Assembly (NCBI RefSeq): GCF_001652585.1
Contig: NZ_LWLG01000022.1
Location: forward strand, 1 to 22,841
DNA from: Thermosulfurimonas dismutans
GTDB taxonomy: Bacteria; Desulfobacterota; Thermodesulfobacteria; Thermodesulfobacteriales; Thermodesulfobacteriaceae
Direction of reading: 5' to 3'
Length of the DNA: 22,841 bases
Positions 225-22,025 of the stretch are shown piece after piece (the stretch's first letter is position 1; each line of letters starts with the position of its first letter). Position numbers and translations under genes: made by a program. The notes under the pieces are model-generated. The model had not been told where the DNA came from. It made no database searches and saw only the letters and a list, made by a program, of their open reading frames with translations.

Positions 225-1328
225 TTGCAATTTTTTAAAAAACATTTCTTTTTTTTAATGGTGGTCGTTTGTCCTACATTATTGACCATTATATATGAAG
301 CTTTTATTGTAACTCCAGTATATATAAGTGAATCTAAGGTAATAGTAAAAAGTCTTCACGACCAGCAGGGATTTCAGGGATTTGGGACCTTTCTTCAGAG
401 TATAGGTGTACTAAGTCCATCGTTTGTTGGTGCCAGTCTGGTCATGAATTACATGTCCTCTCGCACCGCTATGTTTGAACTGGAAAAAATCTTAAATCTT
501 AAGAAGTATTTTTCCAGAAAAGATATTGATTTTATACAAAGGTTTGATCCGTTTCATATTGATCCAAGTTATGAAAATTTTTTTGAATATTACCAAAAGA
601 AAATAGTAAATATAGGTATAGACATAAATTCCTCAATTCTTATTATAAAGGTCAGAGCCTTTGATCCTGAATTTGCATATAATGTCAATACAAATCTTAT
701 CAAGTTAAGCGAAAATTTTATAAACAGATTAAATGAACGGGCATCAACCACAGCAATCAAATTTTATGAGGCTAAACTCGAAGAATCCAGAAAAAAAGTT
801 CAACATTTCTCAGAGAAATTGGCAGAATTTTTAAGCCAGACCAAAGTGGTTGCTCCTGAAAGACAAATTGGAATTCTGCTGGAACATACAGCAAAACTGC
901 AAGAACAACTTATTCTAAAACAGATGGAACTTTCGAGAATTATTTCCGTGACTCCGGACAACCCCAAGATTGCCACTCTGAAAAAAGATATAGAGGAGAT
1001 AAAAAGAGAAATAAACAAAAATATAAACATAATTGCGGGCGACAAAAAATCAGTGGCATCTTATTCAATAAAATTGGAGCTTATGAGAGCAGAACTTGAG
1101 ATGTTACAAAAGGAGCTTGAGGCGAATTTGACGGCTTTTATTCAGGCGCAGAATCAGGCCCTTTTACAGCATCTCTTCATCGAGAAAGTGGAAGAACCCA
1201 CGAAGCCCGATGCCCCTAAGGAGCCCAAGCGGATCAAGAGCATTTTAACGGTATTTGCGATAAGCTTTGCAATATGGGGGATAATTTCTCTTTTTGCGGC
1301 CGGAGTCAAAGAACATCTGGGAAAATAA
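225..1328 (+). CDS. kpsE: Capsule polysaccharide export inner-membrane protein, KpsE-like (PCP-3 type co-polymerase/adaptor)
   Basis: TTG start lies 6 nt after AAGGAGG (212-218). An N-terminal TM helix is followed by PVYISESKVIVKS (KpsE-type signature region). The centre is long and K/E/L/Q-rich (coiled-coil-like), and there is a C-terminal TM helix (ILTVFAISFAIWGIISLFAAG). The gene sits immediately upstream of kpsM/kpsT homologues. Confidence 0.85.
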   Translation: MQFFKKHFFFLMVVVCPTLLTIIYEAFIVTPVYISESKVIVKSLHDQQGFQGFGTFLQSIGVLSPSFVGASLVMNYMSSRTAMFELEKILNLKKYFSRKDIDFIQRFDPFHIDPSYENFFEYYQKKIVNIGIDINSSILIIKVRAFDPEFAYNVNTNLIKLSENFINRLNERASTTAIKFYEAKLEESRKKVQHFSEKLAEFLSQTKVVAPERQIGILLEHTAKLQEQLILKQMELSRIISVTPDNPKIATLKKDIEEIKREINKNINIIAGDKKSVASYSIKLELMRAELEMLQKELEANLTAFIQAQNQALLQHLFIEKVEEPTKPDAPKEPKRIKSILTVFAISFAIWGIISLFAAGVKEHLGK

Positions 1329-1331
1329 AAA

Positions 1332-2126
1332 ATGAATAGCCTTACGGAATTTATAGAGGCCTTCAGAATTCAGAAACGGATTATTCATGCCCTCATGATG
1401 CGCGAAATTATCACCCGCTACGGAAGAAAAAACATAGGTTTCCTATGGCTGTTTGTAGAACCGGCCCTCATCACCCTGATATTTACCCTGGTTCATGGGT
1501 TATTTAGAGGACGTTCACACTCGGATTTTCCAGCCGTAATCTTCATGTTGAGTGGGTATTCCGCCTCCTCCCTTTGGAGAAATGTGGCTACCCATTGTTT
1601 GGCGGCCATAAAAGCCAACATAGCCCTTCTCTACCACAGATATGTGAAGATCCTGGACCTTCTTCTCTCCAGATTTGTGCTGGAAATAGGAGCGGTCACA
1701 GGGGCCTTTCTATTTCTTTTCATGGTGTTTCATGCCTTGAAGATGGCCTCTCTACCGGTAAATTACTTCCACGTAGTTCAGGGATGGTTTCTTATGTGCT
1801 GGCTTGGTATGGCCCTCGGTTTCATCACCGGCTCTCTGGCCACCATCTCTGAGGTATTCTCACGTATATGGCCTCCGCTAAACCTGATTTTTTTCATCAC
1901 CGGCGGCACCTTTTTCCTGATAGAATGGGTTCCAGAGCACTTCCGTAAACTAATCCTTCTTCTCCCCATGGCTCACAATATAGAAATGGTGCGATACGGA
2001 TTTCTCGGGGGAAAAATGCATCCTTACTATAGTGTGGAATATTCCGTAATGGCCAATCTTTTTCTTACCCTTATAGGTCTTTTATTGGTTAAATATGTGA
2101 GCCAAAAGGAGGAATTGATTACATAA
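1332..2126 (+). CDS. kpsM: Capsule polysaccharide ABC transporter permease (ABC-2 type), KpsM-like
   Basis: ATG lies 3 nt after the kpsE stop. The 264-aa protein is multi-TM, with an N-terminal ABC-2 permease motif REIITRYGRKNIGFLWLFVEP typical of KpsM/Wzm/TagG. Confidence 0.9.
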   Translation: MNSLTEFIEAFRIQKRIIHALMMREIITRYGRKNIGFLWLFVEPALITLIFTLVHGLFRGRSHSDFPAVIFMLSGYSASSLWRNVATHCLAAIKANIALLYHRYVKILDLLLSRFVLEIGAVTGAFLFLFMVFHALKMASLPVNYFHVVQGWFLMCWLGMALGFITGSLATISEVFSRIWPPLNLIFFITGGTFFLIEWVPEHFRKLILLLPMAHNIEMVRYGFLGGKMHPYYSVEYSVMANLFLTLIGLLLVKYVSQKEELIT

Positions 2127-2127
2127 A

Positions 2128-2787
2128 ATGAGTGAAAAATTTCTGGAATTGATCAATATAAGAAAAATATATCCCACTAGGTCCGGGCCTAAAATAGTCT
2201 TAAACGGTATCAATCTGCGGATCAATTACGGAGATAAGATAGGAATTCTTGGAAGGAATGCCGCCGGGAAATCCACATTGATCAGGATTATCGGAGGGGT
2301 ATCCAAGCCCACTAGTGGGAAAATCCTCAGGAGAATGAAAGTCAGCTGGCCCCTGGCCTTTCAAGGTGGCTTTCAGGGTAGTCTTACCGGTCTCGACAAT
2401 CTGAAATTTATATGTCGAATCTACGGAGTTCCCTGGAAGGAAAAATACGAATTTGTGAAAGAGTTTGCGGATTTGGGAGATTATTTTTATGAACCCGTAA
2501 AGACCTACTCTTCCGGTATGAGAGCAAGGCTGGCCTTTGCCATTTCCCTAGCCGTTGACTTCGATTGTTATCTGATAGACGAGGTAGTAGCGGTTGGGGA
2601 TAGCCGATTCCATCAAAAGTGCAAAAGAGAACTTTTTGAAAACAAAGCAGAGAAGAGCTATATACTGGTATCCCATCAGGGAAATTATATAAAACAGTTT
2701 TGCAATCGGTTCTTTGTACTCTCTAACGGTCAATTGCAGGAGTTTCCGAATTTTCAGGAGGCCTGGAATTTTTATACTTCACAGTGA
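2128..2787 (+). CDS. kpsT: Capsule polysaccharide ABC transporter ATP-binding protein, KpsT-like
   Basis: Walker A GRNAAGKST, ABC signature YSSGMRARL, Walker B DCYLIDE. The 219-aa size is typical of KpsT. ATG lies 1 nt after the kpsM stop. Confidence 0.92.
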   Translation: MSEKFLELINIRKIYPTRSGPKIVLNGINLRINYGDKIGILGRNAAGKSTLIRIIGGVSKPTSGKILRRMKVSWPLAFQGGFQGSLTGLDNLKFICRIYGVPWKEKYEFVKEFADLGDYFYEPVKTYSSGMRARLAFAISLAVDFDCYLIDEVVAVGDSRFHQKCKRELFENKAEKSYILVSHQGNYIKQFCNRFFVLSNGQLQEFPNFQEAWNFYTSQ

Positions 2788-4811
2788 AGCCTGATCTTCT
2801 TTCCCAAACGGAAGTCTTCCCTGTAAATGGTCAAATTAGGATTATAGTAAGGATCTCTTTCGATGTATTTTTTCCATTTTTTTCGTATGTAAGCTAGCTC
2901 TTTCTGCGCCTGGCGGTTTCGGTTAGAATTATATCCCCTGGATCTGCTTTCATAGTGATAAAGTTCCGCGTAAGGGGTATAGACAATCCTGTACCCCTTT
3001 TCATAAACTTTCAGGCAAAAGTCAAGATCATTGAAGGAGATGGCAAGATTTTTTTCATCGAATCCCCCCACTTCCCAAAAAATTTCTTTCCGGAAAACCA
3101 TGCAGGCCGCCGTTACGGCCAGATAGTTTCCGGGAAGAATCGCTCTGTACATATAACCGGGATCATCGGCGGGGAGACGTTTGAAGGCGTGGTCAGCCCC
3201 CCTCCATAGTCCAACCACCACCCCGGCGTGCTGAACCCTGTGATCGGAATAAAGCAGTCTGGCCCCCACTACCCCTATCTCTTTTCTAATAGCGCGGGAC
3301 ACCATTTCTTTTAACCAGATAGGTGATATTACCTCCGTATCATTGTTCAAAAGGCACACAATTTCCCCACGGGAATGTTTTACTCCGAAGTTGATGAGTT
3401 TAGAAAAGTTAAAAGGAATATCATATTTTAATACCCTCACCTTCTCTTTTCGTGAAATGCTCTTGAAGAATTCAAGAGTTCCTCTTTTCCGGGAACCGTT
3501 GTCCACAATGAGGATTTCATAGGCTTGGTAGTCTGTTTTTTCAAGAATGCTTGATACGCACCTTGAGAGTAAATCCACTCTATCCCTGGTAGGAATGACA
3601 ATGGATACCGGCGGCTCTTCCAGAGGTAGAGGATAGCGAACCCTGAAAGTATGGGGAATTTGGCCTTTTTCTACCTTGGCGTCCGGGGCGTACCAGGAAA
3701 GGAATTCTTTCAGGGCTAAAAGCCCCCGTTCCCATTCCTCCTCTTCGTATTCCCAGCCTTTACTGTAAAGAACGATCGGGATGTGCCCCACCTTCAGTTT
3801 CCCTTTGTGCTTCCAGAGTTTCAGGAAGGCACGGTATATCGTATAATGTCCGTATCCTCTTTCGAATCCCCCGATTGCTTCCAGATCGTCTATTTTGAAA
3901 ACCACAAGATTCTGTATGTAATCATGGGAAAGATAATATTCTGGACTAAAGTCTGGTTTTAGTCGTGGGGAACATCTCTTTTCTTCGTCTATAGAGTCGC
4001 TATCCGTATAAATGACATCAAAATCTCCATTTTTATTAAGAAAACTTACGATGCAGGCCAGAGCTATCTCCGACAGGACATCCCCCGCAAAAAGAAAACA
4101 CAGGTATTCCCCACTCGTTTTTGCTAAAACTTGATCGAGATTTTCATCATTGACGAGAAAATATTCCCAGCGATCGTAAACCTGTCTTTTCAGAGACTCG
4201 ATGGTTCTATCCGGGTTTTTCTGACCATTGTCAACATAGATTATTACGGAAATCAGAGGCTTGTATTTCAGCCTGTGAACCCGGTTCTTCCATTTTGGAA
4301 GTTGTTCGTGCAAAAGCCTTTCATAGATAGCCAGCCAGTCTGAATAATTTTCATCTGCACAAATCCTTAAATATCTGGCATAACTTATACGGTGATAGCT
4401 CTTCTTTGGACTCATAAGTATATCCCACACGCTCAGTCCCGCTTCTCTTTTCAGGTCTCTCGTAATTTTATTCCTCGAAAAGAGCACGGGGAGAATTGTG
4501 CGATAAAACCTGTAGATTCTTTCGGGAAAACTTATCTCTTTTATTTCTATCCTTTCGGCGATTTTTATAATACCTCTTTCTAAACAGAAGTTGATATCTA
4601 TTGTTTTTAATTCTTTAGCGGCATAAAAAATGTAATTTATCGAGCCACTTTTAGCTATGGGCAACCTTTTGGTTTCGTGCCTACCATCCTGGTAGTGCAA
4701 TATGATTTTGGTCTTACATAAATCACAGGTGGCCTTCACCCTGCCTCGGATGAGGAACCAGCCTCTTTTCCCTGCGAAAGGAAAGGTCAGTGTATTTCCA
4801 GAGAGGTCCAT
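2772..4811 (-). CDS. Multidomain family-2 glycosyltransferase (two GT-A regions), rhamnosyltransferase-like architecture
   Basis: ATG at 4811 has GGAG 5 nt upstream on the - strand. First GT-A-like region: LISVIIYVDNGQKNPDRTIESLKRQVYDRWEYFLVND. Second, canonical GT2 region: VSIVIPTRDRVDLLSRCVSSILEKTDYQAYEILIVDNGS ... LLNNDTEV ... FNDLDFCLKVYEKGYRIVYTPYAELYHYES. Sugar specificity cannot be read from sequence. Confidence 0.85.
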   Translation of the reverse strand: MDLSGNTLTFPFAGKRGWFLIRGRVKATCDLCKTKIILHYQDGRHETKRLPIAKSGSINYIFYAAKELKTIDINFCLERGIIKIAERIEIKEISFPERIYRFYRTILPVLFSRNKITRDLKREAGLSVWDILMSPKKSYHRISYARYLRICADENYSDWLAIYERLLHEQLPKWKNRVHRLKYKPLISVIIYVDNGQKNPDRTIESLKRQVYDRWEYFLVNDENLDQVLAKTSGEYLCFLFAGDVLSEIALACIVSFLNKNGDFDVIYTDSDSIDEEKRCSPRLKPDFSPEYYLSHDYIQNLVVFKIDDLEAIGGFERGYGHYTIYRAFLKLWKHKGKLKVGHIPIVLYSKGWEYEEEEWERGLLALKEFLSWYAPDAKVEKGQIPHTFRVRYPLPLEEPPVSIVIPTRDRVDLLSRCVSSILEKTDYQAYEILIVDNGSRKRGTLEFFKSISRKEKVRVLKYDIPFNFSKLINFGVKHSRGEIVCLLNNDTEVISPIWLKEMVSRAIRKEIGVVGARLLYSDHRVQHAGVVVGLWRGADHAFKRLPADDPGYMYRAILPGNYLAVTAACMVFRKEIFWEVGGFDEKNLAISFNDLDFCLKVYEKGYRIVYTPYAELYHYESRSRGYNSNRNRQAQKELAYIRKKWKKYIERDPYYNPNLTIYREDFRLGKKIRLHCEV

Positions 4812-5776
4812 ATTTGCTCCGATTTTTGTTTCAGGTGTTCGATTAACCTCAGGGCGTTTTGATAAATTTCCTGTCTTTTCTTTTTGTTTCTGGCAAGTTC
4901 AATTATAACTTCTACCCAGTCTTTTACCTCCATAGGCAAGACCATTCCGGCCCCGGCAGAACTTATCATCTCCGCATAAATACTTTCAGCAGAATAGATT
5001 CCGACCCCACCGGCCCGGGTTATGTCGAAAAATTTGGTGTAACTCCGTCCCCGGTTAAATGGAGTATCGAACATCGGGGCAAGCCCTATGTGCCTGTATC
5101 TCATGATCGAGAAACGCAGATAGGTGCGCCAGGACATAGGCTTAAAAAGGATGACATTTTTTAGATTTTTGAAGAAGGAAACGGTGCACTTGTTGGCAAT
5201 GATCTCAAAGAGAATATTAGTTTTCTTTTCGGTAACCTTTCTCACCACCTCGGCAAGCCATTCGAACTCCTTTCGATAGGAATAGGTGCTGTGATAAAAG
5301 ACGAGGATATTACCGTCCGGGTTAAAATTTACCCCCAAAGGCCCTATCTCCAGGGGATAGGGTAAAACAACTCTGGGATGCAGGTCGCGATATTTGCGGG
5401 CGAGATGCTCATTACAAACCCATACCTCGGCCCCAATATCTTTGATCCAGCTCTTGTGTCGGGTAGCGTACCAGAAAACCTTCCATCTATATCTCAGCGA
5501 GAGTCCGCTGGTGGCTCTTACATCGAGGAGATCATCGTCCATTAAATAGATCAATCTTTTTATGTTTCTTCGATTGGCTTTTATCAAGTTTTTCAGGGAA
5601 TCGGTTAGGTAGCGGACGATGAAGACCGTTTTACCTTTCAGGTCTATGTTTTTGGGAAGGCTGTGAAGATGATAATTTTCCACCTGTAAACCTCTTTTTT
5701 GGAGAAAGGGCTTCAGGAAATAGGCCGTTGTGGGCTCGGTATTGAACTCGAAGATCAGAAATCTATTAGATACCAC
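4787..5776 (-). CDS. Uncharacterised protein, possibly a GT-B-like glycosyltransferase
   Basis: GTG start, 329 aa. It overlaps the downstream same-strand GT2 gene by 25 nt, which suggests one operon. The C-terminal half (ILVFYHS ... GLAPMFDTPFNRGRSYTKFFDITRAGGVGIYS) looks Rossmann/GT-B-like, but I saw no diagnostic motif. Coding status is well supported; function is not. Confidence 0.45.
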   Translation of the reverse strand: MVSNRFLIFEFNTEPTTAYFLKPFLQKRGLQVENYHLHSLPKNIDLKGKTVFIVRYLTDSLKNLIKANRRNIKRLIYLMDDDLLDVRATSGLSLRYRWKVFWYATRHKSWIKDIGAEVWVCNEHLARKYRDLHPRVVLPYPLEIGPLGVNFNPDGNILVFYHSTYSYRKEFEWLAEVVRKVTEKKTNILFEIIANKCTVSFFKNLKNVILFKPMSWRTYLRFSIMRYRHIGLAPMFDTPFNRGRSYTKFFDITRAGGVGIYSAESIYAEMISSAGAGMVLPMEVKDWVEVIIELARNKKKRQEIYQNALRLIEHLKQKSEQIWTSLEIH

Positions 5777-5835: not shown

Positions 5836-5864
5836 TTGCATAACAAGAACAACCCATTTACAAT
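5836..5864 (+). promoter_or_regulatory. Candidate sigma70-type promoter for the cysC-led operon
   Basis: TTGCAT (5836-5841), a 17-nt spacer, then TACAAT (5859-5864), in the divergent intergenic region. This is ~45 nt upstream of the SD-supported cysC start. Hexamer match only; the host sigma specificity is unknown. Confidence 0.4.
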
Positions 5865-5907
5865 AAAGAGCGTTCCGTTCAAACGAGATCGGAGGGGAGG
5901 TACGAAA

Positions 5908-6513
5908 TTGAAAAGTCCGCATGTGGTTTGGCATCCCCAGTTGGTAACCCGGGAAGATCGGGAACGTCTGAACAAACACCGAAGCGGAGTGATCTGGTTT
6001 ACTGGTCTCCCTGCCTCGGGAAAATCCACCATCGCCCATTTCGTGGAGAGGAATCTCTTCGAGAGGGGTATTCGGGCCTATGTGCTCGATGGAGACAATG
6101 TCCGCCACGGTCTGTGTGCGGATCTAGGTTTTAGTCGAGAAGACCGGCGTGAAAACCTGAGGCGCATTGCGGAAGTTTGTAAGCTGATGGTGGACGCGGG
6201 TCTGATCGTGTTAGCGGCTTTCGTTTCCCCCTTTCGCGAGGACCGTCAGTATGTGCGAGAAATCATAGGCAATGACTGTTTCTTTGAGGTTTACGTAAAA
6301 TGTAGTCCGGAAACGTGTGAAAAACGGGATCCCAAAGGGCTCTATCGAAAGGCCCGGGCCGGAAAGATCGAAGGTTTTACCGGAATCAACGCCCCTTATG
6401 AAGAACCGGAAGCCCCCGATCTTGTTCTGGATACAGAAAAACACGATCTGGAGGAATGTGTTTCTTTGGTCCTCAAGATGCTTTCTCAAAAGAAATTTAT
6501 TTTACTTATTTGA
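5908..6513 (+). CDS. cysC: Adenylylsulfate (APS) kinase, makes PAPS
   Basis: P-loop GLPASGKST, then LDGDNVRHGL, FVSPFREDR and KGLYRKARAGKIEGFTGI, all colinear with CysC. I placed the start at in-frame TTG 5908, 7 nt after GGAGGGGAGG (5891-5900), which gives 201 aa. The longest-ORF TTG at 5836 has no SD and coincides with the -35-like box. Confidence 0.9.
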   Translation: MKSPHVVWHPQLVTREDRERLNKHRSGVIWFTGLPASGKSTIAHFVERNLFERGIRAYVLDGDNVRHGLCADLGFSREDRRENLRRIAEVCKLMVDAGLIVLAAFVSPFREDRQYVREIIGNDCFFEVYVKCSPETCEKRDPKGLYRKARAGKIEGFTGINAPYEEPEAPDLVLDTEKHDLEECVSLVLKMLSQKKFILLI

Positions 6514-6659: not shown

Positions 6660-7850
6660 ATGAAAGAAGAGGTTTACCCCTGGCAAAGAAGGCTAGTATT
6701 ACTCATTATGTTTTTGTTGGTGGTTCTGAATGCTTCTTGTTCCTATTTCTTGCCTCAATCTGGTCCTTCTACTTTCGGCATAAAAAAAATTTCCCTCGAT
6801 CAAAGATTAGGTATTGAGAAATATGTCACTTTAGTGAAGTTGAACCCCCGAATCATCCTGGCCTTTCCAGATGTCAAGATCTTTTGGACCAAAGATTTGG
6901 AAGGTTTTGTGGTTGGTAGGTATTCTCCGATAATAGACACGGGGGATGTTCTGGAAATATTCGTATATGAATCTCCTCCCCCACTACTTTTCAGTTCGGC
7001 TTCCATTTTGGGCATCCAGCAGAACGAGGTGGTGGCCTTTCGCATCCCTCCACAAATTGTGGATGAAAACGGGTATATTCTGGTTCCCTTTGCGGGCCGA
7101 ATAAAGGCTAAGGGCAAAAGGCCCGAAGAAGTCGCTCAATCCATAGCGGCCAAACTTGCGCGAAAAGCGAACAATCCCCAGGTAGTGGTCAAGTTGTCTG
7201 GGTTCAATTCCTCTTACGTCACCGTCTTTGGAGAGGTAAGGGAAAGCAGGAAGGTGCCCCTCACTTATTCCAACTTCAGGCTTCTCGACGCCCTGGCTTC
7301 CGTAGGAGGGGTGACCTCACCCATAAACAAGACTCTGGTTCAGATCGACCGAAAAGGGAAGACCATACGGTTGCCTCTGGAGGAAGTCATAAGGGACCCT
7401 AAACTGAATCTGAATCTCCAACCCGGTGATGTGATAACTGTGGTTTATAAGACCCAGTCGGCGGTCTTTCTGGGAGCCTCCGGCCGCAATATGGAGCTGG
7501 AATTCGAGGCCAGGGGAATAAACCTTTCGCAGGCCCTGGGAAGGGTTGGAGGGCTCCAGGACGACAGGGCCCACGCCAAGGGACTTTTCATTTTCCGGCT
7601 TGAAGATAAGGACGTTTTACGTAAAATAGGGATCAAACCGAAAGCGGTAGCTATGGGGGGTAAGATACCGGTAATCTACAATGTAGATCTTTCCGACCCT
7701 GCTTCTTTCCTCATCCTCAAAAATTTTTATTTAAAAGACGGAGATATTGTGTATATAGCCACGGCTCCTGCCGTGCAACTACAGAAGTTCTTGCGGGTAA
7801 TTTCGCCCATAATTTCCGACATTTTTATGATAGATCGGCTTTCGAAGTAG
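6660..7850 (+). CDS. Outer-membrane polysaccharide export protein (OPX family; Wza/KpsD-like)
   Basis: N-terminal signal sequence ends in the lipobox-like LVVLNASC. Poly_export-like segment: GDVLEIFVYE ... ILVPFAGRIKAKGKRPEEVAQSIAAKL. Repeated SLBB-like segments: VTVFGEVRESRKVPL ... LLDALASVGG; LQPGDVITV; LSQALGRVGG ... GDIVYI. Confidence 0.85.
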   Translation: MKEEVYPWQRRLVLLIMFLLVVLNASCSYFLPQSGPSTFGIKKISLDQRLGIEKYVTLVKLNPRIILAFPDVKIFWTKDLEGFVVGRYSPIIDTGDVLEIFVYESPPPLLFSSASILGIQQNEVVAFRIPPQIVDENGYILVPFAGRIKAKGKRPEEVAQSIAAKLARKANNPQVVVKLSGFNSSYVTVFGEVRESRKVPLTYSNFRLLDALASVGGVTSPINKTLVQIDRKGKTIRLPLEEVIRDPKLNLNLQPGDVITVVYKTQSAVFLGASGRNMELEFEARGINLSQALGRVGGLQDDRAHAKGLFIFRLEDKDVLRKIGIKPKAVAMGGKIPVIYNVDLSDPASFLILKNFYLKDGDIVYIATAPAVQLQKFLRVISPIISDIFMIDRLSK

Positions 7851-7885: not shown

Positions 7886-8764
7886 ATGAAAGGTGTGGTT
7901 CTGGCCGGGGGCTCGGGTACCAGGTTGTACCCGGTTACCAAGTGCATCAACAAACATCTATTGCCCGTCTATAACAAGCCCATGATTTATTATCCGCTTT
8001 CGGTGCTCATGCTGGCAAGGATAAGAGAGATCATCCTGGTGGTCAATCCGGAAGACGAAGGGGTATATCGAGAACTCCTTTCCGATGGTTCTCAATTGGG
8101 GATGAGCATCAGTTACGCTATTCAAGGCAATCCCGGTGGGCTGGCTCACGCCCTTCTTTCGGCGGAAGAGCTGGTCCAGGGAGACAATGTGTGTGTGCTC
8201 CTCGGGGACAATATCTTTTTCGGGCACGGCCTTACGGAAATGGTAAACGAAGCCCGGAGGGAAATTGAAGAACATGGCGGGGCTTACATTTTTGGCTATT
8301 ACGTCCATGATCCTGAAAGGTACGGAATAGTTGAGTTCGATGAGGAGGGAAGGGCTATATCCCTGGAGGAGAAACCCAAGAAGCCGAAATCCCACTACGC
8401 CGTGGTAGGGCTTTACTTTTACGATCCAACGGTCTTTGAAAAGGCCAGAAAGGTGAAACCTTCCAAAAGAGGGGAAATGGAAATCACCTCGGTCAACGAA
8501 AAGTACCTCAAAGAAGGGAAACTCAGAGTGAAGCGTTTGGGGCGCGGTTTTGCCTGGTTCGACGCCGGAACCCACGACAGCTTTTTGGATGCCGGGAAAT
8601 TTGTGTCCACTATAGAGAAGAAGGCCGGTCTGATGGTGGGCTGTATCGAAGAGATAGCCTACCGAAACGGATGGATAGACAAGAAACAACTCAAAGAACT
8701 GGCCAAATCTATGGAAAAGACGGATTACGGAAAGTATCTTCTGGAAATCGCCAAAGGGGGCTAA
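7886..8764 (+). CDS. rfbA: Glucose-1-phosphate thymidylyltransferase
   Basis: [18 protein letters not shown] (G-x-G-T-R-L), [29 protein letters not shown]. The 292-aa size is typical. A strong SD (GAGGGGGG) lies upstream. Confidence 0.95.
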
Positions 8765-15226: not shown

Positions 15227-16456
15227 ATGGAGAACAAGGGCAAGCAGAGTTCGAAACTCGCGCCAAAAGATAGACCGGTTTTTCTGATAACCACAGGCAG
15301 AACAGGAAGCACTTTTCTTCAGAGATTGCTCAATTGCCATAAAAACCTTGTGATATGGGGAGAACATTTTGGCTTTCTGAACAGTCTTGCCGCGGCGTAT
15401 GTAGCCATGAAGAGTCCGAACCAGAACCTGTATCCCAGAACTCCGGAAGAAAATAGAGGGCCAGACATTCTTCTTCCCACCCTCAGATCGCCTGACATTG
15501 CAATAGAGTGGGCCAATCCTTGGTCGTTCCGGGAATACAGAAATTTTGTAAAAGAATTCATAGAGAAATATTTTGCTTCTAGGCTCGATTCTCCTCACAA
15601 GAGATGGGGATTTAAGGAGATAAGATATAACAACCTCCAAGTTTTGAATATGCTCAAAGACATTTATCCCGGAGGCAGATTTATATTTTTGAAGAGAAAG
15701 CCGGAGGAAGTTATTAGAAGCAAAATTTTTGCCTTTATAAAAGAAGATAGATGGGCAAAAATGTCAGACAGAATGAAGAGACAGCATATCCGGAAGTTAT
15801 ATGATGAACTCAAATCTCACTACTCTGTTTATGATGCTTTCGTAAAATCCAATCATAATATCTCTACGATAGTTATATATGAGGAACTTGTAGCATATCC
15901 CAGAAAGATTATTAATCATCTCTTGCGTTTGCTTGGTTTATCTGGTGATACCTACGACTGGCAACTTGCTGAAAAGATTATAAAAAACGTTTTGTGCAAG
16001 ACCAAAAGAGATCACGAGGTTTATAAACTCATAAATGAAGTCTTGAATAACCACAAAAAGGTAGAAATAAAGGGACATCTTGATGTGGTAGATGAAACAC
16101 GTTGTAGTGGCTGGGCTTTTGATAAATTCAATAAAGACTACCCCGTGAGTGTGGTTGTTTCCGTAAACGGAAAGGTGGTGGGCAAAACTCTGGCTCATGC
16201 TTACCGGGAAGATCTCAAGAAAAAAAACATTCATCCCACCGGTCATTGCGGTTTTGTCTTGATGTGGAAAAATCTCGGATTAGAGCTGAAGGCTGGAGAC
16301 AGGGTGGAGGTATTTGTGGAGGGGGCTAATGTTCCCCTACCCGGTTCTCCGATGGTGTATGAGCCACGAGCTGTGAAGGAGGACGACGTTTCTGTGGTAA
16401 AAAGAGAGGTAGATATAAAAACCGATTTCTCATATGCTAACATAAATTTGTCTTAA
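15227..16456 (+). CDS. PAPS-dependent sulfotransferase-family protein with a C-terminal accessory module
   Basis: 5'-phosphosulfate-binding-loop-like TTGRTGSTFLQRLL (aa 22-35). 3'-phosphate-binding-like FIFLKRKPEEVIRS (aa 152-165). The C-terminal ~90 aa (nt 16073-16342) is homologous to the N-terminal repeats of the next gene. Confidence 0.8.
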   Translation: MENKGKQSSKLAPKDRPVFLITTGRTGSTFLQRLLNCHKNLVIWGEHFGFLNSLAAAYVAMKSPNQNLYPRTPEENRGPDILLPTLRSPDIAIEWANPWSFREYRNFVKEFIEKYFASRLDSPHKRWGFKEIRYNNLQVLNMLKDIYPGGRFIFLKRKPEEVIRSKIFAFIKEDRWAKMSDRMKRQHIRKLYDELKSHYSVYDAFVKSNHNISTIVIYEELVAYPRKIINHLLRLLGLSGDTYDWQLAEKIIKNVLCKTKRDHEVYKLINEVLNNHKKVEIKGHLDVVDETRCSGWAFDKFNKDYPVSVVVSVNGKVVGKTLAHAYREDLKKKNIHPTGHCGFVLMWKNLGLELKAGDRVEVFVEGANVPLPGSPMVYEPRAVKEDDVSVVKREVDIKTDFSYANINLS

Positions 16457-16533: not shown

Positions 16534-19500
16534 GTGATCCAGGGGCATTTCGATAGAGTAGATGGCCTTTACGTCCACGGATGGGCTTTTAATCCCGAAA
16601 ATCCAGAAGAAAGGGTAGAGGTGGTAGTTCTTGTAGATGGAAAGCCTGTGGCAGAGGGAGTTGCTGATCAGTTTAGAGAGGATCTTAAAGAAGCCGGTAT
16701 TGGAGATGGCGGGTATGCGTTTGTAATTAAGCTTCCTAATGAGATTGCTGATGGGAAGGAACACGAAATAAGGGTAGTTGTGAAGAACACGGGGAATGAT
16801 TTAGAAAACAGTCCGCAAATAGTTATATTTCAGCAATTAGAAGATAGTTATATAGGTCATCTAGATTCAGTGGATGGATTACTTGTTACAGGCTGGACAT
16901 ATAACAAGGCTAATCCAGAAGAAAGGGTAGAGGTGGTAGTTCTTGTAGATGGAAAGCCTGTGGCAGAGGGAGTTGCGGACCAATACAGGGAAGATTTAAA
17001 GCAGGACGGTATAGGAGATGGAAAGCATGCTTTCAAGATAAAACTTCCTGATGAACTTGCTGATGGGGAGGTACATGAGATAAAGGTAGTTGTGAATTCA
17101 TATCCCAATTTCAAAGTAGAACTCGCAGAAAAAAAATATATTTGCATTAAAAGTGATATCATATTTGATGAAGAATTTTACTTAGAGCAAGCTAGAAGAA
17201 AAGATATTTTGGTAAATGAAACACCAATACTGCATTATTTAAAAAATGGTTGGAAATTAGGCTTAGACCCTCATCCTTTATTTGACACATGGTACTATTA
17301 TGAAGTTAATAACCCATCAAGAGAAGTTTGCCCTCTAGTTTCGTATTTACTTGACAGAAAGTTTTTCCAGTGTTCTCCTTTTGTAGATGAAGCATATCTT
17401 AATCATATGCTTCACATAAATAAGATATCCCCTGATAAAACACTAAGGAATCTTGCTTTTGCTATAAAGCAAGGTTTGCCTCCTTCTTTCCTTCATCCAC
17501 ATATATTTGATCCAGTTATTTCTTTTTTAAGAATGAATTTGAGCTTAGCGATTGATTATACCGACATTCTTGATGTTATAAAAACAAAGCCAAGCATAGA
17601 AGATTTGATTGTTTTGTTGAGGTTTTTGCGTTCGCAAAGAATATATAATTTTTCTGATGATGAAAGTCCTATAATAAGTGTTGTAATTCTTAATTATAAG
17701 AAGCCTATTATGACTATTTTATCTGCCCTGAGTGTTCTTATTGCATTGAAAGATGTGCCACACGAGATTATAATAGTAGATAATGAATCTGATCGTTTTT
17801 TTACTGAAATTTTATACCGCTATTTACAAAAGCAAAAAAATGTGAAGATCATTGCCTCCAAGAATAATCTTTTCTTTGGGGAAGGAAATAATATAGCAAT
17901 AGATAGAGTACAAGGAAGATATGTTTTATTTCTAAATAACGATGCGTTTATTGGTCCTAATATAAAGTATTTATTGGATATTTTAGAAGAAAAAGAAGAT
18001 ATAGGGGCTGCTTCTCCGATTATTATTAATCAAGATTTTAGAATATCAGAAGTTGGAGGAATTGTTAGTCCATTAGGAGATGTTTTGCAAATAGGTAAAT
18101 TTATGAACTTTGAGAAAACATTATGGAATTCTCTGAACAATATGGCATTTATAGAAGTTGATTATGCATCAGCAGCATGTTTGATGGTTAGGGCAGAGAT
18201 ACTAAAAAAATACGGTGGATTCGACTATATATATGAACCCTTTTATTACGAAGATACAGATTTATGCTTAAGAATAAAATGTTTGGGGTATAAAATTGTA
18301 TGTATCCCTAAAGCAATTTCTTTGCATATTGAAAATTTTACAACTAAAGAGTTTTTGAAAGATAAATGGGGCACTGTTGTCCAGAATTCTAAGGAAAAGT
18401 TCTTTAATAGATGGGTATTTAAAAATAAAGAATATAAACCTGTTGAAATAAAATATTCCCAAAGAAAGAAAAGAAAAACAATTGCTTTGTATACACCCTT
18501 TCCAATTACTATTGGAGGAGGCGAAAACTATTTCTTGTCTATGGGAGCAGCTTTGTCTAAAATAGCCAATATAGTTTTTATTACAGAAGAATACACATCA
18601 AGAACAAGAATATCTTTTGTCTGTAGAGATTTGGGTATAGAACAATTTGAATTTGAAGTAATGAAGAGAAATGAGGTTGGAAAGTACTATTTTGATCTTG
18701 CTATAGTAATGGGTAATGAGATCGTGCCTTCTTGGATTCCTCCTGCCCAAAAAATAATTTACCTTTGTCAATTCCCCTTTCCTCTGTACCATGTTAAATA
18801 TCATGATTTCAGCTCTTATGATAAAATTGATTTATATATAGCATATTCTTTCTTCGTAAAAGAAAATATACAGAAAGAAATTGAAAAATATTCACTACCA
18901 GAAAAACCTATTGAGGTGATTTATCCGCCTAGTAACTTGCCTAATTATACAGTTGATGAAATTTTGGAAAAAAAGTTGCGGAATAAAAATAAAAAAATGT
19001 TTATAAGTATAGGTAGATTTCAATCACACGGTCATAATAAGCGACAGGATGTAATAGCTAAGATACTAAGTGAAGCTTCTACAAAGTTACCGATAGAGGG
19101 GTATATTTTTGGCGGTTTGCGAGAGAGTCCAGAAGATAAAGAATTTTTTCAAAAAGTGAGATCATATCAAAATAAAGGTGTTCTTCTAGTGAAAGCTAAT
19201 GTTGATAGAGATACAATTGAGTCTCACTTATTAAGATCACATTTCTATATACATGCTACAGGTTTAGGTATTAATCCTGGAGTAGAACCATATAAATGTG
19301 AACATTTCGGAATAACTTTAGTGGAAGCTATGGCATATGGGTGTATTCCTTTAGCATACAAATGTGGTGGACCAAAGGAAATACTTGAAAGTCACAATGT
19401 GGGATATGTATTTAGTTCAGAAGATGAATTGAAAAATCTTGTATTCGATTTGATCGAGATGGATATTGAATCAGAAGAATATTGGATCACAGTTGAGAAA

Positions 19501-19605
19501 TGTATGAAAGTAGCAGAAAATTTTTCAAGAGAAAATTTTTATAAAAAAGTAAGCAATATAATAGAAAAATTAATGTCAACAAGTAATTTTAACGGGTTGC
19601 TATAA
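16534..19605 (+). CDS. 1023-aa bifunctional glycosyltransferase (two N-terminal accessory repeats + GT2 domain + GT4-type GT-B domain); candidate polymerase
   Basis: GTG start follows AAGGGGGG. aa 4-190: two tandem ~104-aa repeats. aa ~210-290: FDEEFYL ... HYLKNGWKLGLDPHPLFD motif region. GT2 (aa ~379-605): ISVVILNYKKP ... EIIIVDNESD ... FLNNDAF ... YYEDTDLCLRIKCLGYKIVC. GT4 (aa ~648-1005): IALYTPFPITIGGGENY ... EHFGITLVEAMAYGCIPLAYKCGGPKE. Confidence 0.85.
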   Translation: MIQGHFDRVDGLYVHGWAFNPENPEERVEVVVLVDGKPVAEGVADQFREDLKEAGIGDGGYAFVIKLPNEIADGKEHEIRVVVKNTGNDLENSPQIVIFQQLEDSYIGHLDSVDGLLVTGWTYNKANPEERVEVVVLVDGKPVAEGVADQYREDLKQDGIGDGKHAFKIKLPDELADGEVHEIKVVVNSYPNFKVELAEKKYICIKSDIIFDEEFYLEQARRKDILVNETPILHYLKNGWKLGLDPHPLFDTWYYYEVNNPSREVCPLVSYLLDRKFFQCSPFVDEAYLNHMLHINKISPDKTLRNLAFAIKQGLPPSFLHPHIFDPVISFLRMNLSLAIDYTDILDVIKTKPSIEDLIVLLRFLRSQRIYNFSDDESPIISVVILNYKKPIMTILSALSVLIALKDVPHEIIIVDNESDRFFTEILYRYLQKQKNVKIIASKNNLFFGEGNNIAIDRVQGRYVLFLNNDAFIGPNIKYLLDILEEKEDIGAASPIIINQDFRISEVGGIVSPLGDVLQIGKFMNFEKTLWNSLNNMAFIEVDYASAACLMVRAEILKKYGGFDYIYEPFYYEDTDLCLRIKCLGYKIVCIPKAISLHIENFTTKEFLKDKWGTVVQNSKEKFFNRWVFKNKEYKPVEIKYSQRKKRKTIALYTPFPITIGGGENYFLSMGAALSKIANIVFITEEYTSRTRISFVCRDLGIEQFEFEVMKRNEVGKYYFDLAIVMGNEIVPSWIPPAQKIIYLCQFPFPLYHVKYHDFSSYDKIDLYIAYSFFVKENIQKEIEKYSLPEKPIEVIYPPSNLPNYTVDEILEKKLRNKNKKMFISIGRFQSHGHNKRQDVIAKILSEASTKLPIEGYIFGGLRESPEDKEFFQKVRSYQNKGVLLVKANVDRDTIESHLLRSHFYIHATGLGINPGVEPYKCEHFGITLVEAMAYGCIPLAYKCGGPKEILESHNVGYVFSSEDELKNLVFDLIEMDIESEEYWITVEKCMKVAENFSRENFYKKVSNIIEKLMSTSNFNGLL
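16543..17103 (+). repeat. Intragenic tandem duplication, period 312 nt (104 codons), two copies
   Basis: Copy 1 is ~16543-16791 and copy 2 is ~16855-17103. A 65-nt block is perfectly identical (16600-16664 = 16912-16976, encoding NPEERVEVVVLVDGKPVAEGVA). The flanks are clearly more diverged (roughly 70% identity by eye). Confidence 0.9.
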
Positions 19606-19853
19606 TGAGCGAGAATAAACTTTAAATATACATAGAACCTCATAAAACTGGAAATGCCTTTATTCAGAAATTTTTCCTTGATTACATGGATGAATTATTA
19701 AAGCTTGGAGATGGCTATCTAAACGAATTGATTTACTTATATGGACATTATGAATTTGTTGAACTATTAAAAGTGAGTGAATATAATGGATTGCTTCCTT
19801 TTGTAAATAGTATCTTAGCGCTGGACACTTTTTTTGGCAAGAAGATTGATTAA
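19605..19853 (+). pseudogene. Remnant of a sulfotransferase-like gene: in-frame TAA at codon 7 and truncated after ~80 codons
   Basis: ATG 19605 overlaps the stop of the upstream gene (TAATG). Reading: MSENKL-TAA(19623-19625)-IYIEPHKTGNAFIQKFFLDYMDELLKLG ... KKID-TAA(19851-19853), all in one frame. IEPHKTGNAFIQKFF resembles the PAPS-loop regions HIGWPKTGTSAIQHF (20625 gene) and TTGRTGSTFLQRLL (15227 gene). It is far too short for a complete enzyme. Confidence 0.5.
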
Positions 19854-20624
19854 GGGGAGTTGGATTATATTTGCTTAAAAGTTTATTTGTTTTTTGGTTA
19901 GGGAAAATTAAGATTTATTTGGCAATAGCTTGTCACGAGTGATATTATGACAAGAAGGTCAGCAACTTATCGATGGTAATGATGTATGACCCGATCCTGA
20001 ATATAGGGATACTAGTACAGGTTTTAGATTTGAACCATAAGGGTGGATTTTTCATTTTTCTGACAGGGGGTTATTTTAGAAAAGATTTAAATGATAGGCG
20101 AGCTGCAAGTTTTGCATTAGTGACTTTGGGTATGGAAAGTGAAGCAGATGATATGATAGAGATATATAGAGAGGTGGAGAATAGAGAGGATGTTTTACAA
20201 TATGGAGAGCAATGGATTTGAGGTTAGCCAGATGCGTTTTAGAGGTAATACGAAGATGGAAATGTTATTTTATGTGGTAGCGATATGTTAATATCTATTG
20301 GAGGTTATAGGTAAAATTAAGTAGAAGATGAGAGGTGATGGCAGGGATAGTGTATTTTTATGGAGATTAAGGTAATTAAAGAAGATATTAAGAGGATTTT
20401 GGTTAAAGAAGTGAACCGGATTTGTGAGATATTCTTAGAATGTTATAGAAGGTTAAGAAATAAGTTGTTTTTTATGTTTCTAGTAAAAGGTGTCTGCTAG
20501 TATGTTGCGTTTTAGAGAAATCATTTTGAGTTAATAAACATATTGATGAAAAAGTAGACGATATTTTAGAGAGAGTTTTTAATATAGTTGAATACTTGAT
20601 TTTAAAGATTTTGGAGAATAAGAA

Positions 20625-22025
20625 ATGGCATTTGAAAAAGTTAAATTTATTTTCCATATAGGATGGCCTAAAACTGGTACTAGCGCTATTCAACATTTTT
20701 GCTTTAAAAATAGAGAGAAAATTGCAAAGTTATACCAAATTTTATACCCAAAAACAGGAAAAATGCATTTTGAACATCACTATTTTGTTGTGGCTTTAAC
20801 TTCAAAACAAAATATAAACAGAGTGGTTTATAACTTTTATAAAGATCATAAAGAAATGTTTGCTGATTTGACAGATGAAATGAATTCTGTTAGAAAAGAT
20901 GATATAAAAAAGATTTTAATAAGTAGTGAATTTATGTGCGGTCCTAGTTTCGTTAAAGAATTGTCTGAAATAAAGAAAAAAATAAACGAATTTAAAATAA
21001 ATATTGACAAACTAATTGCCTATGTAAGACGTCAAGATTTGTTGTTAGATAGTCATTACAGGCAGCATATGAAAGAAATTTGGTTTTTTTCTGATTTTAT
21101 TTCATTTGCCAGGAAGAATATGTGTTTAGTGGATTTTTTTAATATACTTAACACTTGGGCTACTGTTGTAGATAAATCTAATTTTTTGATCAGAGTATAC
21201 GACAGAAAACTTTTTCCAGAAGGAAATATTATACTTGACTTTTTACAGCTACTTGGGATAGAGATGTCAGAAGCCAGAAATTTCAAAGCAGATATAAATC
21301 CGTCACTTTCGCACCTTTCAGCTCTTGCTTTCAGAAAATTTAAATTTAAATACGATTTTACCAAAGATGAACATCCCAAATTATTGAAATTTCTATTTGA
21401 TATAGATAGAAGAGAAGGAAGCTTTTTGAAAACATTTCTAAGTTTAGAAGAAAGAATAGAGTTGCTTAGAGAATTTAAAGAATCTAATGATTTGTTATTT
21501 AAAGAATATTTTAATTCTTCTAAGAATTTATTTGCTATTTCTGAAGAAGAAATAGTATTTTATAAAAAACAGGATAAAATAGAGAAAGAGAGGATAGATG
21601 AAGCTATAGAAAATAGATTCAAAGAATTAGAAAGATATTATTTTAAAATTACTAAAAGACCTTCAAGGCGTGAATTTATATATTTTATTGAAAAATTTGA
21701 TGAAAAAACTATAAGTGGTTGGATTATAGATCTTATAGATCCACCAGCAAAACTTATTCTTAAAGTAAATGATATTTCTATTTGCGAATTTGAAACAAAT
21801 CACCCTCGCAAAGATGTACTAAATGCATTTCCTGATTTAGGGTATTTAAACTGTGGTTTTGAGCTTAACTTGCTGAATATTAATTTGCCGAAAAGTATAT
21901 TAAAATTAGGAAATGATAGAAGGATAAAGTTAAGTCTAGTTCATAAACGGAGCAATATAGAATTGCGAAATGTTGAAATTAATTCAAACAGTTTGAAAGA
22001 GCTATTAAAAATAAGGGTTGTTTGA
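20625..22025 (+). CDS. Sulfotransferase-like protein with a C-terminal accessory module
   Basis: ATG lies 8 nt after GGAG. N-terminal FIFHIGWPKTGTSAIQHF (P-loop-like 5'-PSB region, aa 8-25) and AYVRRQDLLLDSHY (3'-PB-like R-x-x-D-x-x-x-S, aa 132-145). The C-terminal ~90 aa (nt ~21681-21959) shares the G-W / R-x-D-V / G-F pattern of the recurrent module. Confidence 0.65.
   Translation: MAFEKVKFIFHIGWPKTGTSAIQHFCFKNREKIAKLYQILYPKTGKMHFEHHYFVVALTSKQNINRVVYNFYKDHKEMFADLTDEMNSVRKDDIKKILISSEFMCGPSFVKELSEIKKKINEFKINIDKLIAYVRRQDLLLDSHYRQHMKEIWFFSDFISFARKNMCLVDFFNILNTWATVVDKSNFLIRVYDRKLFPEGNIILDFLQLLGIEMSEARNFKADINPSLSHLSALAFRKFKFKYDFTKDEHPKLLKFLFDIDRREGSFLKTFLSLEERIELLREFKESNDLLFKEYFNSSKNLFAISEEEIVFYKKQDKIEKERIDEAIENRFKELERYYFKITKRPSRREFIYFIEKFDEKTISGWIIDLIDPPAKLILKVNDISICEFETNHPRKDVLNAFPDLGYLNCGFELNLLNINLPKSILKLGNDRRIKLSLVHKRSNIELRNVEINSNSLKELLKIRVV

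Follow-up and report, generated by a model that had tools for sequence, protein, structure and literature searches.

Results

A Kps-type locus with a predicted sulfated, rhamnose-containing product

The 22,841-bp contig NZ_LWLG01000022.1 of the Thermosulfurimonas dismutans S95 draft genome, analysed here over its whole length and referred to as the window, encodes most of a Kps-type capsule system (dependent on an ATP-binding cassette (ABC) transporter and similar to E. coli groups 2/3). Its product is predicted from gene content, with a probability of roughly 0.7, to contain rhamnose and to be sulfated. T. dismutans is a deep-sea-vent sulfur disproportionator of the Thermodesulfobacteria that was grown at 65 °C in its genome paper, and the S95 draft consists of 61 contigs with a G+C content of 50.1% (PMC4911364); gene absences reported below refer to the contig only. 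Genes were called from a mechanical list of open reading frames (ORFs) together with Pfam and NCBIfam profile searches of the window proteins. For comparison, 80 kpsC loci were gathered by a search with the KpsC N-module, and further loci came from searches for homologues of the two sulfotransferases described below, ST1 and ST2. ST1, ST2 and the KpsC-like protein each match a deposited T. dismutans protein at 100% identity.

An initial annotation of the same DNA had listed KpsE, KpsM and KpsT, an outer-membrane polysaccharide export (OPX) protein, a KpsC-like protein, RfbA/C/B/D (here RmlA/C/B/D), an adenylyl-sulfate (APS) kinase and at least five glycosyltransferase (GT) domains; the ORF list and the profile searches recovered every one of these classes where it had placed them. 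The sulfated, rhamnose-containing Kps capsule that it proposed is sound as a gene-based prediction, resting on kps, rml, cysC and sulfotransferase genes, although KpsC-C and KpsS are not on the contig.

Export and Kdo-priming genes

The strongest single anchor for the Kps-type assignment is the KpsC-like gene (11188..12144, + strand; GenBank OAQ19866.1). It encodes a stand-alone N-module β-transferase (KpsC-N) for 3-deoxy-D-manno-octulosonic acid (Kdo), with one PF05159 (Capsule_synth) domain at 171 bits, and it equals PDB entry 6MGB_A at 100% identity over all 318 residues, which anchors the locus in the Kps pathway. The KpsC modules of T. dismutans are, unusually, two separate polypeptides, both characterised as β-Kdo transferases; native KpsC-N enzymes add β-(2->4)-Kdo, and PDB entry 6MGD is T. 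dismutans KpsC-C, a monofunctional β-(2->7)-Kdo transferase (PMC10148158). As no second Capsule_synth gene is found in the window, KpsC-C and KpsS are presumed to lie elsewhere in the genome.

The export genes kpsE, kpsM and kpsT lie at one end of the window. The KpsE-type inner-membrane/periplasmic adaptor (225..1328, +; polysaccharide co-polymerase class PCP-3; GC 0.354) matches TIGR01010 (BexC/CtrB/KpsE) over its full length with 253 bits, under the curated cut-off of 437, and carries transmembrane segments at its N- and C-terminus in a hydrophobicity scan. It is followed by a KpsM ABC-2 permease with multiple transmembrane segments (1332..2126, +; PF01061 (ABC2_membrane) 40.8 bits, NF050053 KpsM 98 bits) and by a KpsT-type ABC ATPase (2128..2787, +; PF00005 (ABC_tran) 60.5 bits), the top NCBIfam matches of which are the polysaccharide/teichoic-acid exporter ATPases TagH, Wzt and VexC. 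The kpsM and kpsT genes abut, and equivalog cut-offs are not reached, as expected given the distant phylum. The OPX protein, of the short KpsD/Wza type (6660..7850, +; Poly_export 58.2 bits, SLBB_2 66.1 bits, NF011658 147 bits), has an N-terminal hydrophobic signal-like segment and is 55-56% identical to proteins of two Aquificaceae contigs, L001 and L002. By profiles and topology, the window thus holds both pairs that mark a Kps-type (group 2/3-like) system, KpsE with OPX and KpsM with KpsT.

Rhamnose pathway and sulfate activation

The rhamnose genes form a complete dTDP-L-rhamnose set, as the initial annotation had claimed: they are contiguous (7886-11197, all +), and all four proteins score above their NCBIfam equivalog cut-offs. 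These are RmlA, glucose-1-phosphate thymidylyltransferase (7886..8764; TIGR01207 439.3 bits, cut-off 360.65), RmlC, dTDP-4-dehydrorhamnose 3,5-epimerase (8767..9333; TIGR01221 270.7 bits, cut-off 155.75), RmlB, dTDP-glucose 4,6-dehydratase (9330..10349; TIGR01181 422.9 bits, cut-off 365.1), and RmlD, dTDP-4-dehydrorhamnose reductase (10334..11197; TIGR01214 300.9 bits, cut-off 224.05). For rmlC, the mechanical ORF begins at 8671, which gives a 94-nt overlap with rmlA, and the likelier start is the ATG at 8767.

Sulfate activation is represented by CysC, an APS kinase (5836..6513, +; PF01583 228.6 bits; NF003013 298.5 bits, cut-off 163; TIGR00455 269.4 bits, cut-off 138.7). Its start is uncertain, the longest ORF (TTG at 5836) differing from the deposited protein and family alignments starting near residue 25. 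The T. dismutans genome encodes sat (TDIS_1516), aprAB and dsr, which run in reverse during disproportionation (PMC4911364). Since the cluster has cysC alone and the organism runs sat/aprAB via APS, the substrate of CysC is probably drawn from the dissimilatory Sat/AprAB pool. Two of the compared loci, L012 from Desulfobulbus and L009 from an uncultured organism, also have cysC and no sulfurylase among the ORFs examined; the Aquificaceae, Cobetia and Vibrio loci described below carry sulfurylase as well. As a sign of a dissimilatory APS source, the cysC-only pattern is suggestive only.

Two predicted sulfotransferases of different families

ST1 (15227..16456, +; GenBank OAQ19869.1) consists of a 3'-phosphoadenosine 5'-phosphosulfate (PAPS)-type sulfotransferase domain (residues ~11-280; PF13469 (Sulfotransfer_3) 60.5 bits, cut-off 27) and a C-terminal β domain. 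An alignment of 33 family sequences shows no variation at R25, G45-E46 and R157 and hardly any at G27-S28-T29 and S165. When the family profile is aligned with human TPST1, the conserved residues fall on the 5'-phosphosulfate-binding motif (5'-PSB; PRSGTT in TPST1, GRTGST at residues 24-29 in ST1), on the GE pair and on the RD...S 3'-phosphate-binding motif (3'-PB). The AlphaFold2 (AF2) model, with a pLDDT mostly >90 over residues 11-250 and two blocks at 82, has the sulfotransferase fold. All 50 PDB matches listed by Foldseek are sulfotransferases bar one, a sulfotransferase-fold retinol dehydratase, and the best among those listed is 3ap3 (E 9e-9). Sequence and model together place ST1 unambiguously in the PAPS-dependent sulfotransferase superfamily.

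ST2 (20625..22025, +; GenBank OAQ19873.1; GC 0.271) is assigned from predicted fold and motifs. Residues 1-345 would form a divergent sulfotransferase-fold region, again followed by a C-terminal β domain. Among 31 family members, K16-T17-G18-T19, S100, R135 and S143 are >=90% conserved, and E102 and R136-Q137-D138 are invariant. The AF2 model (pLDDT mostly >90, residues 1-340) places PKTGTS (15-20) in a strand-loop-helix and R135-R136-Q137-D138...S143 at a strand-helix junction, which is, as modelled, the canonical geometry of the two PAPS-binding motifs. The top 14 Foldseek matches in the PDB are all sulfotransferases (E 2e-5 to 2e-3), and the matches include 3rnl (2.4e-5), the NDST1 sulfotransferase domain (1e-4), the CurM sulfotransferase, 3-OST-5 and TPST. 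Two of the 31 family members match Sulfotransfer_4 at 1e-7 and others match Sulfotransfer_1 or _3 weakly. We therefore describe ST2 as a divergent sulfotransferase-fold protein with plausible PAPS motifs. Of the two intact sulfotransferase-family genes in the initial annotation, ST1 holds by Pfam, motifs and fold, and ST2 is a probable case by predicted fold and family motifs but not by any Pfam or NCBIfam match.

A third, decayed sulfotransferase gene had also been proposed. What is found is a remnant of the N-terminal ~50-80 codons of an ST2-family gene with an in-frame stop (19606..19852, +). It is detected by the ST2-family hidden Markov model (HMM) at nt 19617-19772, covering HMM positions 3-55 with 7.2 bits and an i-E of 8.4e-4 (hmmsearch); its motif is HKTGNAFIQ against PKTGTSAIQ in the family, and the sequence reads "KL*IYIEPHKTGNAFIQKFF". 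The decayed gene is retained as a short ST2-family remnant, a plausible but weak assignment over ~50 codons.

Could the two proteins act on something other than a glycan? Protein tyrosine (in the manner of RaxST/TPST), a lipid or a small molecule would be the acceptor in that case, and the position in a capsule locus incidental. The best structural and profile matches of ST1 are indeed tyrosylprotein sulfotransferases. When metagenomes were scanned for the ST1 family, all genes retrieved were generic members of Sulfotransfer_3, distant (~30%) and set in mixed contexts, and no locus had the full layout; this variety of contexts would likewise suit a non-glycan role. The genome paper, moreover, suggests a sulfur-transport role in disproportionation for a "sulfotransferase TDIS_0343" (PMC4911364). 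Should TDIS_0343 be ST1, gene context favours polysaccharide sulfation instead. Against a non-glycan acceptor, ST1 lies between GT genes in a tight co-directional array with overlaps or gaps of <=~80 bp, and the order GT2-GT4-ST1 is kept in a distant locus (L082) at 47-49% identity. Relatives that adjoin GTs have ST1 and ST2 family domains in one fused protein, ST2 relatives are located in glycosylation loci, both sulfotransferases have a β domain in common with the neighbouring GTs, and five of the 80 independent loci gathered with KpsC-N have cysC adjacent to kpsC. We consider a non-glycan role highly improbable, and sulfation of the capsular polysaccharide remains the preferred reading.

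Glycosyltransferases and proposed pathway

At least five GT catalytic domains had been claimed, and five are confident by Pfam: GT2 domains in three proteins (GT679, GT620 and GT1023, named by their length in residues) and GT4/GT1 domains in a 402-aa protein and in the C-terminus of GT1023. GT620 (12144..14006, +; PF00535 52.7 bits), a 620-aa GT2 with an N-terminal extension, carries one copy of the shared β domain at residues ~188-284 and is 32% identical to its syntenic counterpart in L082. The 402-aa GT4 (14003..15211, +; Glycos_transf_1 74.9 bits, Glyco_transf_4 69.5 bits) is 47% identical to the corresponding L082 protein. GT1023 (16534..19605, +; gene GC 0.328) is bifunctional, with two tandem β domains followed by GT2 (PF00535 52.6 bits, residues 382-560) and then GT1/GT4 (PF00534 69.0 bits, residues 808-984); its gene contains an internal 206-nt repeat (16579-16784 vs 16891-17096, 79% identical), and its GT2+GT1 architecture is also present in L009 and L082. 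On the opposite strand lie GT679 (2772..4811, -), with a C-terminal GT2 domain (PF00535 96.3 bits, residues 403-581) and a degenerate N-terminal GT2-like start (residues 188-226, a weak match), and its 329-aa partner orf329 (4787..5776, -), with a weak GT1-like C-terminus matched only by PF00534 (E 0.004).

The GTs and sulfotransferases have no transmembrane segment by the scan criterion, except for one hydrophobic stretch in GT679 (residues 236-258), which fits chain building and sulfation in the cytoplasm ahead of ABC export. PAPS is available in the cytoplasm. In the established Kps pathway, a β-Kdo oligosaccharide is built on a phospholipid, extended by soluble GTs and exported by the ABC system. 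By analogy, KpsS and KpsC-C (presumably encoded elsewhere) and KpsC-N would build the β-Kdo oligosaccharide on a phospholipid, presumed here to be the lipid acceptor, at the cytoplasmic face. RmlA/B/C/D, to judge from their family membership, would make dTDP-L-rhamnose, and five or more soluble GT2/GT4 domains would lengthen the chain from dTDP-rhamnose and housekeeping sugar nucleotides. CysC would convert APS, probably of dissimilatory Sat/AprAB origin, to PAPS, and soluble ST1 and ST2 would sulfate the nascent chain in the cytoplasm. Finally KpsMT, KpsE and OPX, again going by family, would export the finished polymer. Which position is sulfated can be proposed with much less confidence than the overall prediction, and the two positions or two residues that the initial annotation deduced from the pair of sulfotransferases are conjectural.

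Several observations weigh against this prediction. On the contig, profile searches find neither a second Capsule_synth gene (KpsC-C or KpsS) nor KpsF/KpsU, ATP sulfurylase or CysQ. None of the window GTs reaches a rhamnosyltransferase cut-off, GT620 scoring only 37.7 bits against TIGR01556. A glycan acceptor is assigned to ST1 from context only, since the nearest solved structures are protein-tyrosine sulfotransferases. ST2 gives no match in Pfam/NCBIfam even at E = 10 and no sequence match in the PDB, its Foldseek TM-scores are moderate (~0.5 on target), and hhalign profile-profile comparison of the ST2 and ST1 families aligns the P-loop only, at 15% probability. The 3' third of the window has a GC of 0.27-0.33 vs 0.50 for the genome and contains decayed fragments, the contig runs out in AT-rich, decayed sequence, and the locus may be a recent acquisition without expression. 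Neither Thermosulfurimonas genome paper mentions a capsule.

Related loci link rhamnose, sulfate activation and Kps export

A parallel to the core of the window is found in two Aquificaceae contigs from metagenome-assembled genomes (MAGs), L001 (887-7816) and L002 (1313-9297), in which the OPX-rmlA-C-B-D...kpsC-N block is syntenic at 55-86% protein identity. Between rmlD and kpsC-N these contigs carry a bifunctional ATP sulfurylase/APS kinase (595 bits vs Aquifex aeolicus 2GKS). The intervening ORFs were scanned in L002: there this gene is split by an apparent frameshift and followed by an inositol-monophosphatase-family (CysQ-like) gene. The recurrence of this OPX-rmlACBD-(PAPS genes)-kpsC-N block ties rhamnose, sulfate activation and Kps export together. 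It differs from the window in that the PAPS module of the latter is reduced to a stand-alone cysC upstream of OPX, the Aquificaceae block having the close 2GKS orthologue and the CysQ-like phosphatase. No sulfotransferase is visible on the short contigs L001/L002. As a separate observation, the Aquificaceae blocks suggest that the crystallised Aquifex enzyme, through its active APS-kinase domain, would supply PAPS for a Kps-type capsule.

The cysC gene adjoins kpsC in 5 of the 80 kpsC loci (L001, L002, L009, L012 and L060), which makes sulfation modules in Kps loci a recurrent minority. In L060, from an Aquifex MAG, it adjoins kpsC-N. In L012 (320-18389), from the cultured sulfate reducer Desulfobulbus rhabdoformis DSM 8777, it lies between a two-module kpsC and two KpsS-like genes, in the company of WcbI, GT2/GT1 genes, a sulfatase-family protein and wcb-like lipid genes (aminotransferase, KR-ACP); this locus is a further sulfated-capsule candidate, with cysC only. 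L009, from an uncultured MAG, is compact and combines an ST2-like gene, a 1029-aa GT2+GT4 gene, kpsD, kpsE, kpsT, kpsM, a two-module kpsC, kpsS, cysC and homologues of orf329 and GT679.

The GT block around ST1 also recurs. The Logan contig L082 carries GT2(692)-GT4(414)-ST1-like(642)...GT2/GT1(926) in the same order as window positions 12144-19605, with the GT4 and ST1 proteins 47-49% identical to those of the window, and it has at least five sulfotransferase-like genes among this same GT block (including 7733-9661, 9731-10843 and 17313-19097). In the nearest homologues of ST1, at 49-52% identity (555-642 aa in the two loci retrieved, L081 and L082), an ST1-type domain is joined to an ST2-family domain. 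The L081 fusion gene (7517-9184) lies a few kb from aprAB and a qmo/hdr-like cluster, and its organism appears to be a dissimilatory sulfur metaboliser.

These comparisons bear on where the sulfate would be attached. A Kps polysaccharide could be made and sulfated, with the sulfate on a sugar other than rhamnose or present as a non-reducing-end cap that sets chain length, and one of the two sulfotransferases could be redundant or serve another glycan. In line with this, L009 has cysC, the ST2-like gene and the GT679/orf329 homologues, yet no rml genes within the locus; relatives with the same GT block have one to five sulfotransferase genes; and both sulfotransferases end in a β-sandwich domain that could bind a glycan terminus. 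However, rhamnose is the sugar that bears the sulfate in Cobetia and Vibrio, where a sulfotransferase gene stands beside rml and rhamnosyl-GT genes, and in the Aquificaceae the PAPS genes lie directly between rmlD and kpsC-N. Such an alternative structure is unlikely in our view, and a sulfated, rhamnose-containing polymer is retained as the working model.

Homologues of GT679 (33-40% identity) and of orf329 adjoin rmlBDAC and kpsC in seven Aeromonas/Leclercia/Silvania loci, which gives circumstantial support to the use of dTDP-rhamnose by this pair. The two co-occur in eight kpsC loci of the set, and L009 is the one with cysC. The other seven (L027, L029, L032, L034, L043, L051 and L054, from Silvania, Leclercia and Aeromonas) have a two-module kpsC and no sulfation genes; their Kps capsules probably contain rhamnose, carry no sulfate and are built with the same GT pair.

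A mosaic around a native-GC core

Gene GC is close to the genome value for cysC, OPX, rmlACBD and kpsC-N (0.47-0.54), lower for kpsEMT, GT679, orf329, GT620, GT4 and ST1 (0.35-0.45), and 0.24-0.35 at the contig ends. Composition and synteny indicate a mosaic in which laterally exchanged modules surround a core of native GC, and its parts have different relatives: Aquificaceae, sulfate-reducer-like MAGs and archaeal glycosylation loci. Such a mosaic might be horizontally assembled, partly decaying and cryptic, the cultured strain making no capsule from it. The spread of GC across the contig (0.27 to 0.54, vs 0.50 for the genome), the remnant sulfotransferase gene with two homologous decayed stretches flanking ST2, the lack of linkage of kpsS and kpsC-C to the contig and the silence of the genome papers on a capsule would all accord with this. 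Yet all 17 of the 17 genes are intact and closely packed, with overlaps or gaps of <=~150 bp, and the kpsT/GT679 and GT679/orf329 pairs overlap. KpsC-N of this contig folds, as its crystal structure 6MGB documents, and is among the characterised KpsC enzymes (PMC10148158). Variable regions of deviant GC are normal in functional capsule loci, and the same has been noted for Vibrio sp. KMM 8419 (PMC11641403). A cryptic locus is decidedly unlikely, and a functional capsule system is the reading that we carry forward.

An E. coli origin was discarded, since a megablast comparison of the full window with 5,426 E. coli genomes gave no match. Promoter and terminator scans of the window returned what is expected from shuffled sequence and were uninformative on operon structure.

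Comparison with described capsules

The initial annotation recognised no described kps-type locus for a sulfated rhamnan. This did not hold, as two such systems, from Cobetia marina KMM 1449 (Rha2S) and Vibrio sp. KMM 8419 (Rha3S), have already been published. The C. marina capsule has the chemically determined structure ->4)-α-L-Rhap2S-(1->3)-β-D-Manp6PGro-(1->, and its locus comprises kpsETMD, kpsSC, cysNC/cysD/cysQ, rmlBDAC and a sulfotransferase beside the rhamnose genes (PMC11766843). The window shares with it Kps ABC export, a KpsC Kdo-priming gene, an rml operon, a PAPS gene and a sulfotransferase near rml/GT genes. The two are likened by gene content, and they differ in several respects. 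C. marina is a mesophilic gammaproteobacterium with a ~70-gene locus, a full cysNC/cysD/cysQ/sulfate-permease set, GDP-Man genes, a wcb lipid operon and a two-module KpsC, whereas the window is compact (17 genes) and has cysC only, the KpsC N-module only and two sulfotransferases of different families. The joint presence of kps, rml, PAPS and sulfotransferase genes was used by the Cobetia authors to recognise comparable loci (PMC11766843); in the window, kps export, rml, a PAPS gene and sulfotransferases lie within 22 kb, as in a locus of the Cobetia/Vibrio type.

For Vibrio sp. KMM 8419 the structure is ->2)-α-L-Rhap3S4Ac-(1->6)-α-D-Glcp-(1->; the locus has kpsDME, kpsT and kpsS, no kpsC, rmlA/D/C/B, cysNDC and three sulfotransferase genes, one of them beside the rhamnose operon, and the authors regard PAPS and sulfotransferase genes in a polysaccharide cluster as a hallmark of sulfated polysaccharide synthesis (PMC11641403). 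Kps, rml, PAPS and sulfotransferase genes are common to this locus and the window, and the Vibrio cluster too is GC-deviant and shaped by horizontal gene transfer. It lacks kpsC, and its authors propose an undecaprenyl-phosphate route begun by WecA (group 3). Because the window has KpsC-N with a solved structure, we provisionally place it, unlike the Vibrio locus, on the β-Kdo-lipid route.

With E. coli group 2 the window shares KpsMT, KpsE, OPX, a KpsC-family β-Kdo transferase and serotype-specific GT genes of deviant GC; KpsC-N matches 6MGC, a KpsC N-module structure (from E. coli according to PMC10148158), at E 3.6e-72. It differs from this system in the split KpsC of T. dismutans, in having the export genes at one end and OPX beside rml, in its sulfation genes, in a short OPX (396 aa vs ~560 in L009) and in having no kpsF, kpsU or kpsS on the contig. 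Mesorhizobium loti "KpsS" is a polysaccharide sulfotransferase with fucosyl sulfotransferase activity (Townsend & Keating 2008, as cited in PMC11625862). It resembles the window enzymes in their predicted function, being PAPS-dependent and modifying a bacterial surface polysaccharide/glycolipid; its setting is rhizobial, and it shares its name with the Kdo transferase KpsS by coincidence. Related predictions exist for Campylobacter jejuni HS:19.

The window locus adds to the already described sulfated-rhamnose Kps loci; its gene logic and product type are known from Cobetia and Vibrio, and it is no new class. What is distinctive here is the reduced PAPS module, the split KpsC and the poorly recognised second sulfotransferase family. 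Apart from the use of its KpsC modules, the literature searched gave no paper on Thermosulfurimonas that treats a capsule, sulfation or the present locus. Should the prediction be true chemically, this would be, as far as the literature searched shows, the first sulfated capsule of Kps type from a thermophile and from the phylum Thermodesulfobacteriota, and ST1 and ST2 would be a source of heat-stable, soluble polysaccharide sulfotransferases. To our knowledge, little is known of enzymes for the sulfation of rhamnose or other neutral sugars, and they are wanted for making sulfated glycans. Because KpsC modules of the same organism have already been crystallised, ST1 and ST2 are likely to be tractable proteins.

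Possible links to sulfur metabolism and exchange between domains

The closest homologues of ST2 (35-42% identity) are found in loci with archaeal features, and include a truncated Archaeoglobus fulgidus protein. In one of these loci (L083, 1-11446), the ST2-family gene stands at the end of a glycosylation cluster with AglB (STT3), with a DDE transposase directly downstream; in another (L085, 7796-11734), it stands beside a double-GT2 gene, and the locus has an AF_0155-family gene (a family named from Archaeoglobus fulgidus). These entries, with P0063, hint that surface glycans of archaea have a candidate sulfotransferase here and that the family has crossed between domains.

A wider proposal, which we put forward only tentatively and hold to be rather doubtful as a whole, would join three elements: dissimilatory APS feeds capsule sulfation, ST2 represents a cross-domain family of glycan sulfotransferases without a Pfam model, and PAPS synthesis in Aquificaceae has its role in capsule sulfation. 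Under this proposal, the lack of a sulfurylase in the locus is explained because the stand-alone CysC taps APS from reverse AprAB/Sat, and the ST2 family may have been exchanged between vent bacteria and archaeal N-glycosylation loci near AglB. If true, the sulfation of surface glycans would be linked to dissimilatory sulfur metabolism, with a hint at the use of PAPS in Aquificaceae, and the active APS-kinase domain of the Aquifex-type PAPS synthetase would gain a physiological role, namely capsule sulfation.

A shared β domain and the surroundings of ST2

A β-rich domain of ~90 aa occurs in five copies across four enzymes of the locus, two at the N-terminus of GT1023 (16534-16830 and 16855-17100) and one each in ST1 (C-terminus, 16067-16357), GT620 (~12705-12995) and ST2 (C-terminus, ~21670-22000). 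Its motif is GH.D.v....GWa......v.V.vDG......A...R.DL...G.G.HgF. A word-indexed search returned four proteins and was uninformative, and an exhaustive profile search was used instead; at E<=0.001 it gave 7,919 cluster representatives, and at E<=1e-10 it gave 1,950. The domain is repeated in tandem up to 15 times in some proteins. Among 53 proteins sampled, the partners were GT2, methyltransferase, sulfotransferase, TPR and secreted-protein domains, and the domain itself is covered by no Pfam model. A role as glycan binder or as enzyme scaffold can be guessed at. Apparent ST1 matches in six Granulosicoccaceae/Chromatiales kps loci proved to involve the C-terminal β domain only (residues 281-377); these are not sulfotransferases, and the loci were not counted as sulfated.

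The region next to ST2 has a strongly positive GC skew at 20-21 kb (0.51). An RNA or intron was suspected in the G-skewed 19.9-20.6 kb, and was discarded, as no Rfam family reached its gathering score anywhere in the window. Two ~200-nt stretches flank ST2 (19860-20120 and 22545-22805), with ~60% identity in a MAFFT alignment and a conserved core of ~30 nt, ATTTRTTTGGYAATAGMTTGTCAYGARTG. Their translations, "IYLAIACHE*YYDKKVSNL...LDLNHKGG" and "ICLVIDCHEWHFVSKVNNL...LDLNIIGN", resemble decayed copies of one ORF. The repeat is treated as tentative because blastn between 19.6-20.6 kb and 22.0-22.8 kb was not significant and only the MAFFT alignment shows the likeness. Taken with the ST2-family remnant, the flanking stretches look like traces of a duplicated or transposed ST2 cassette.

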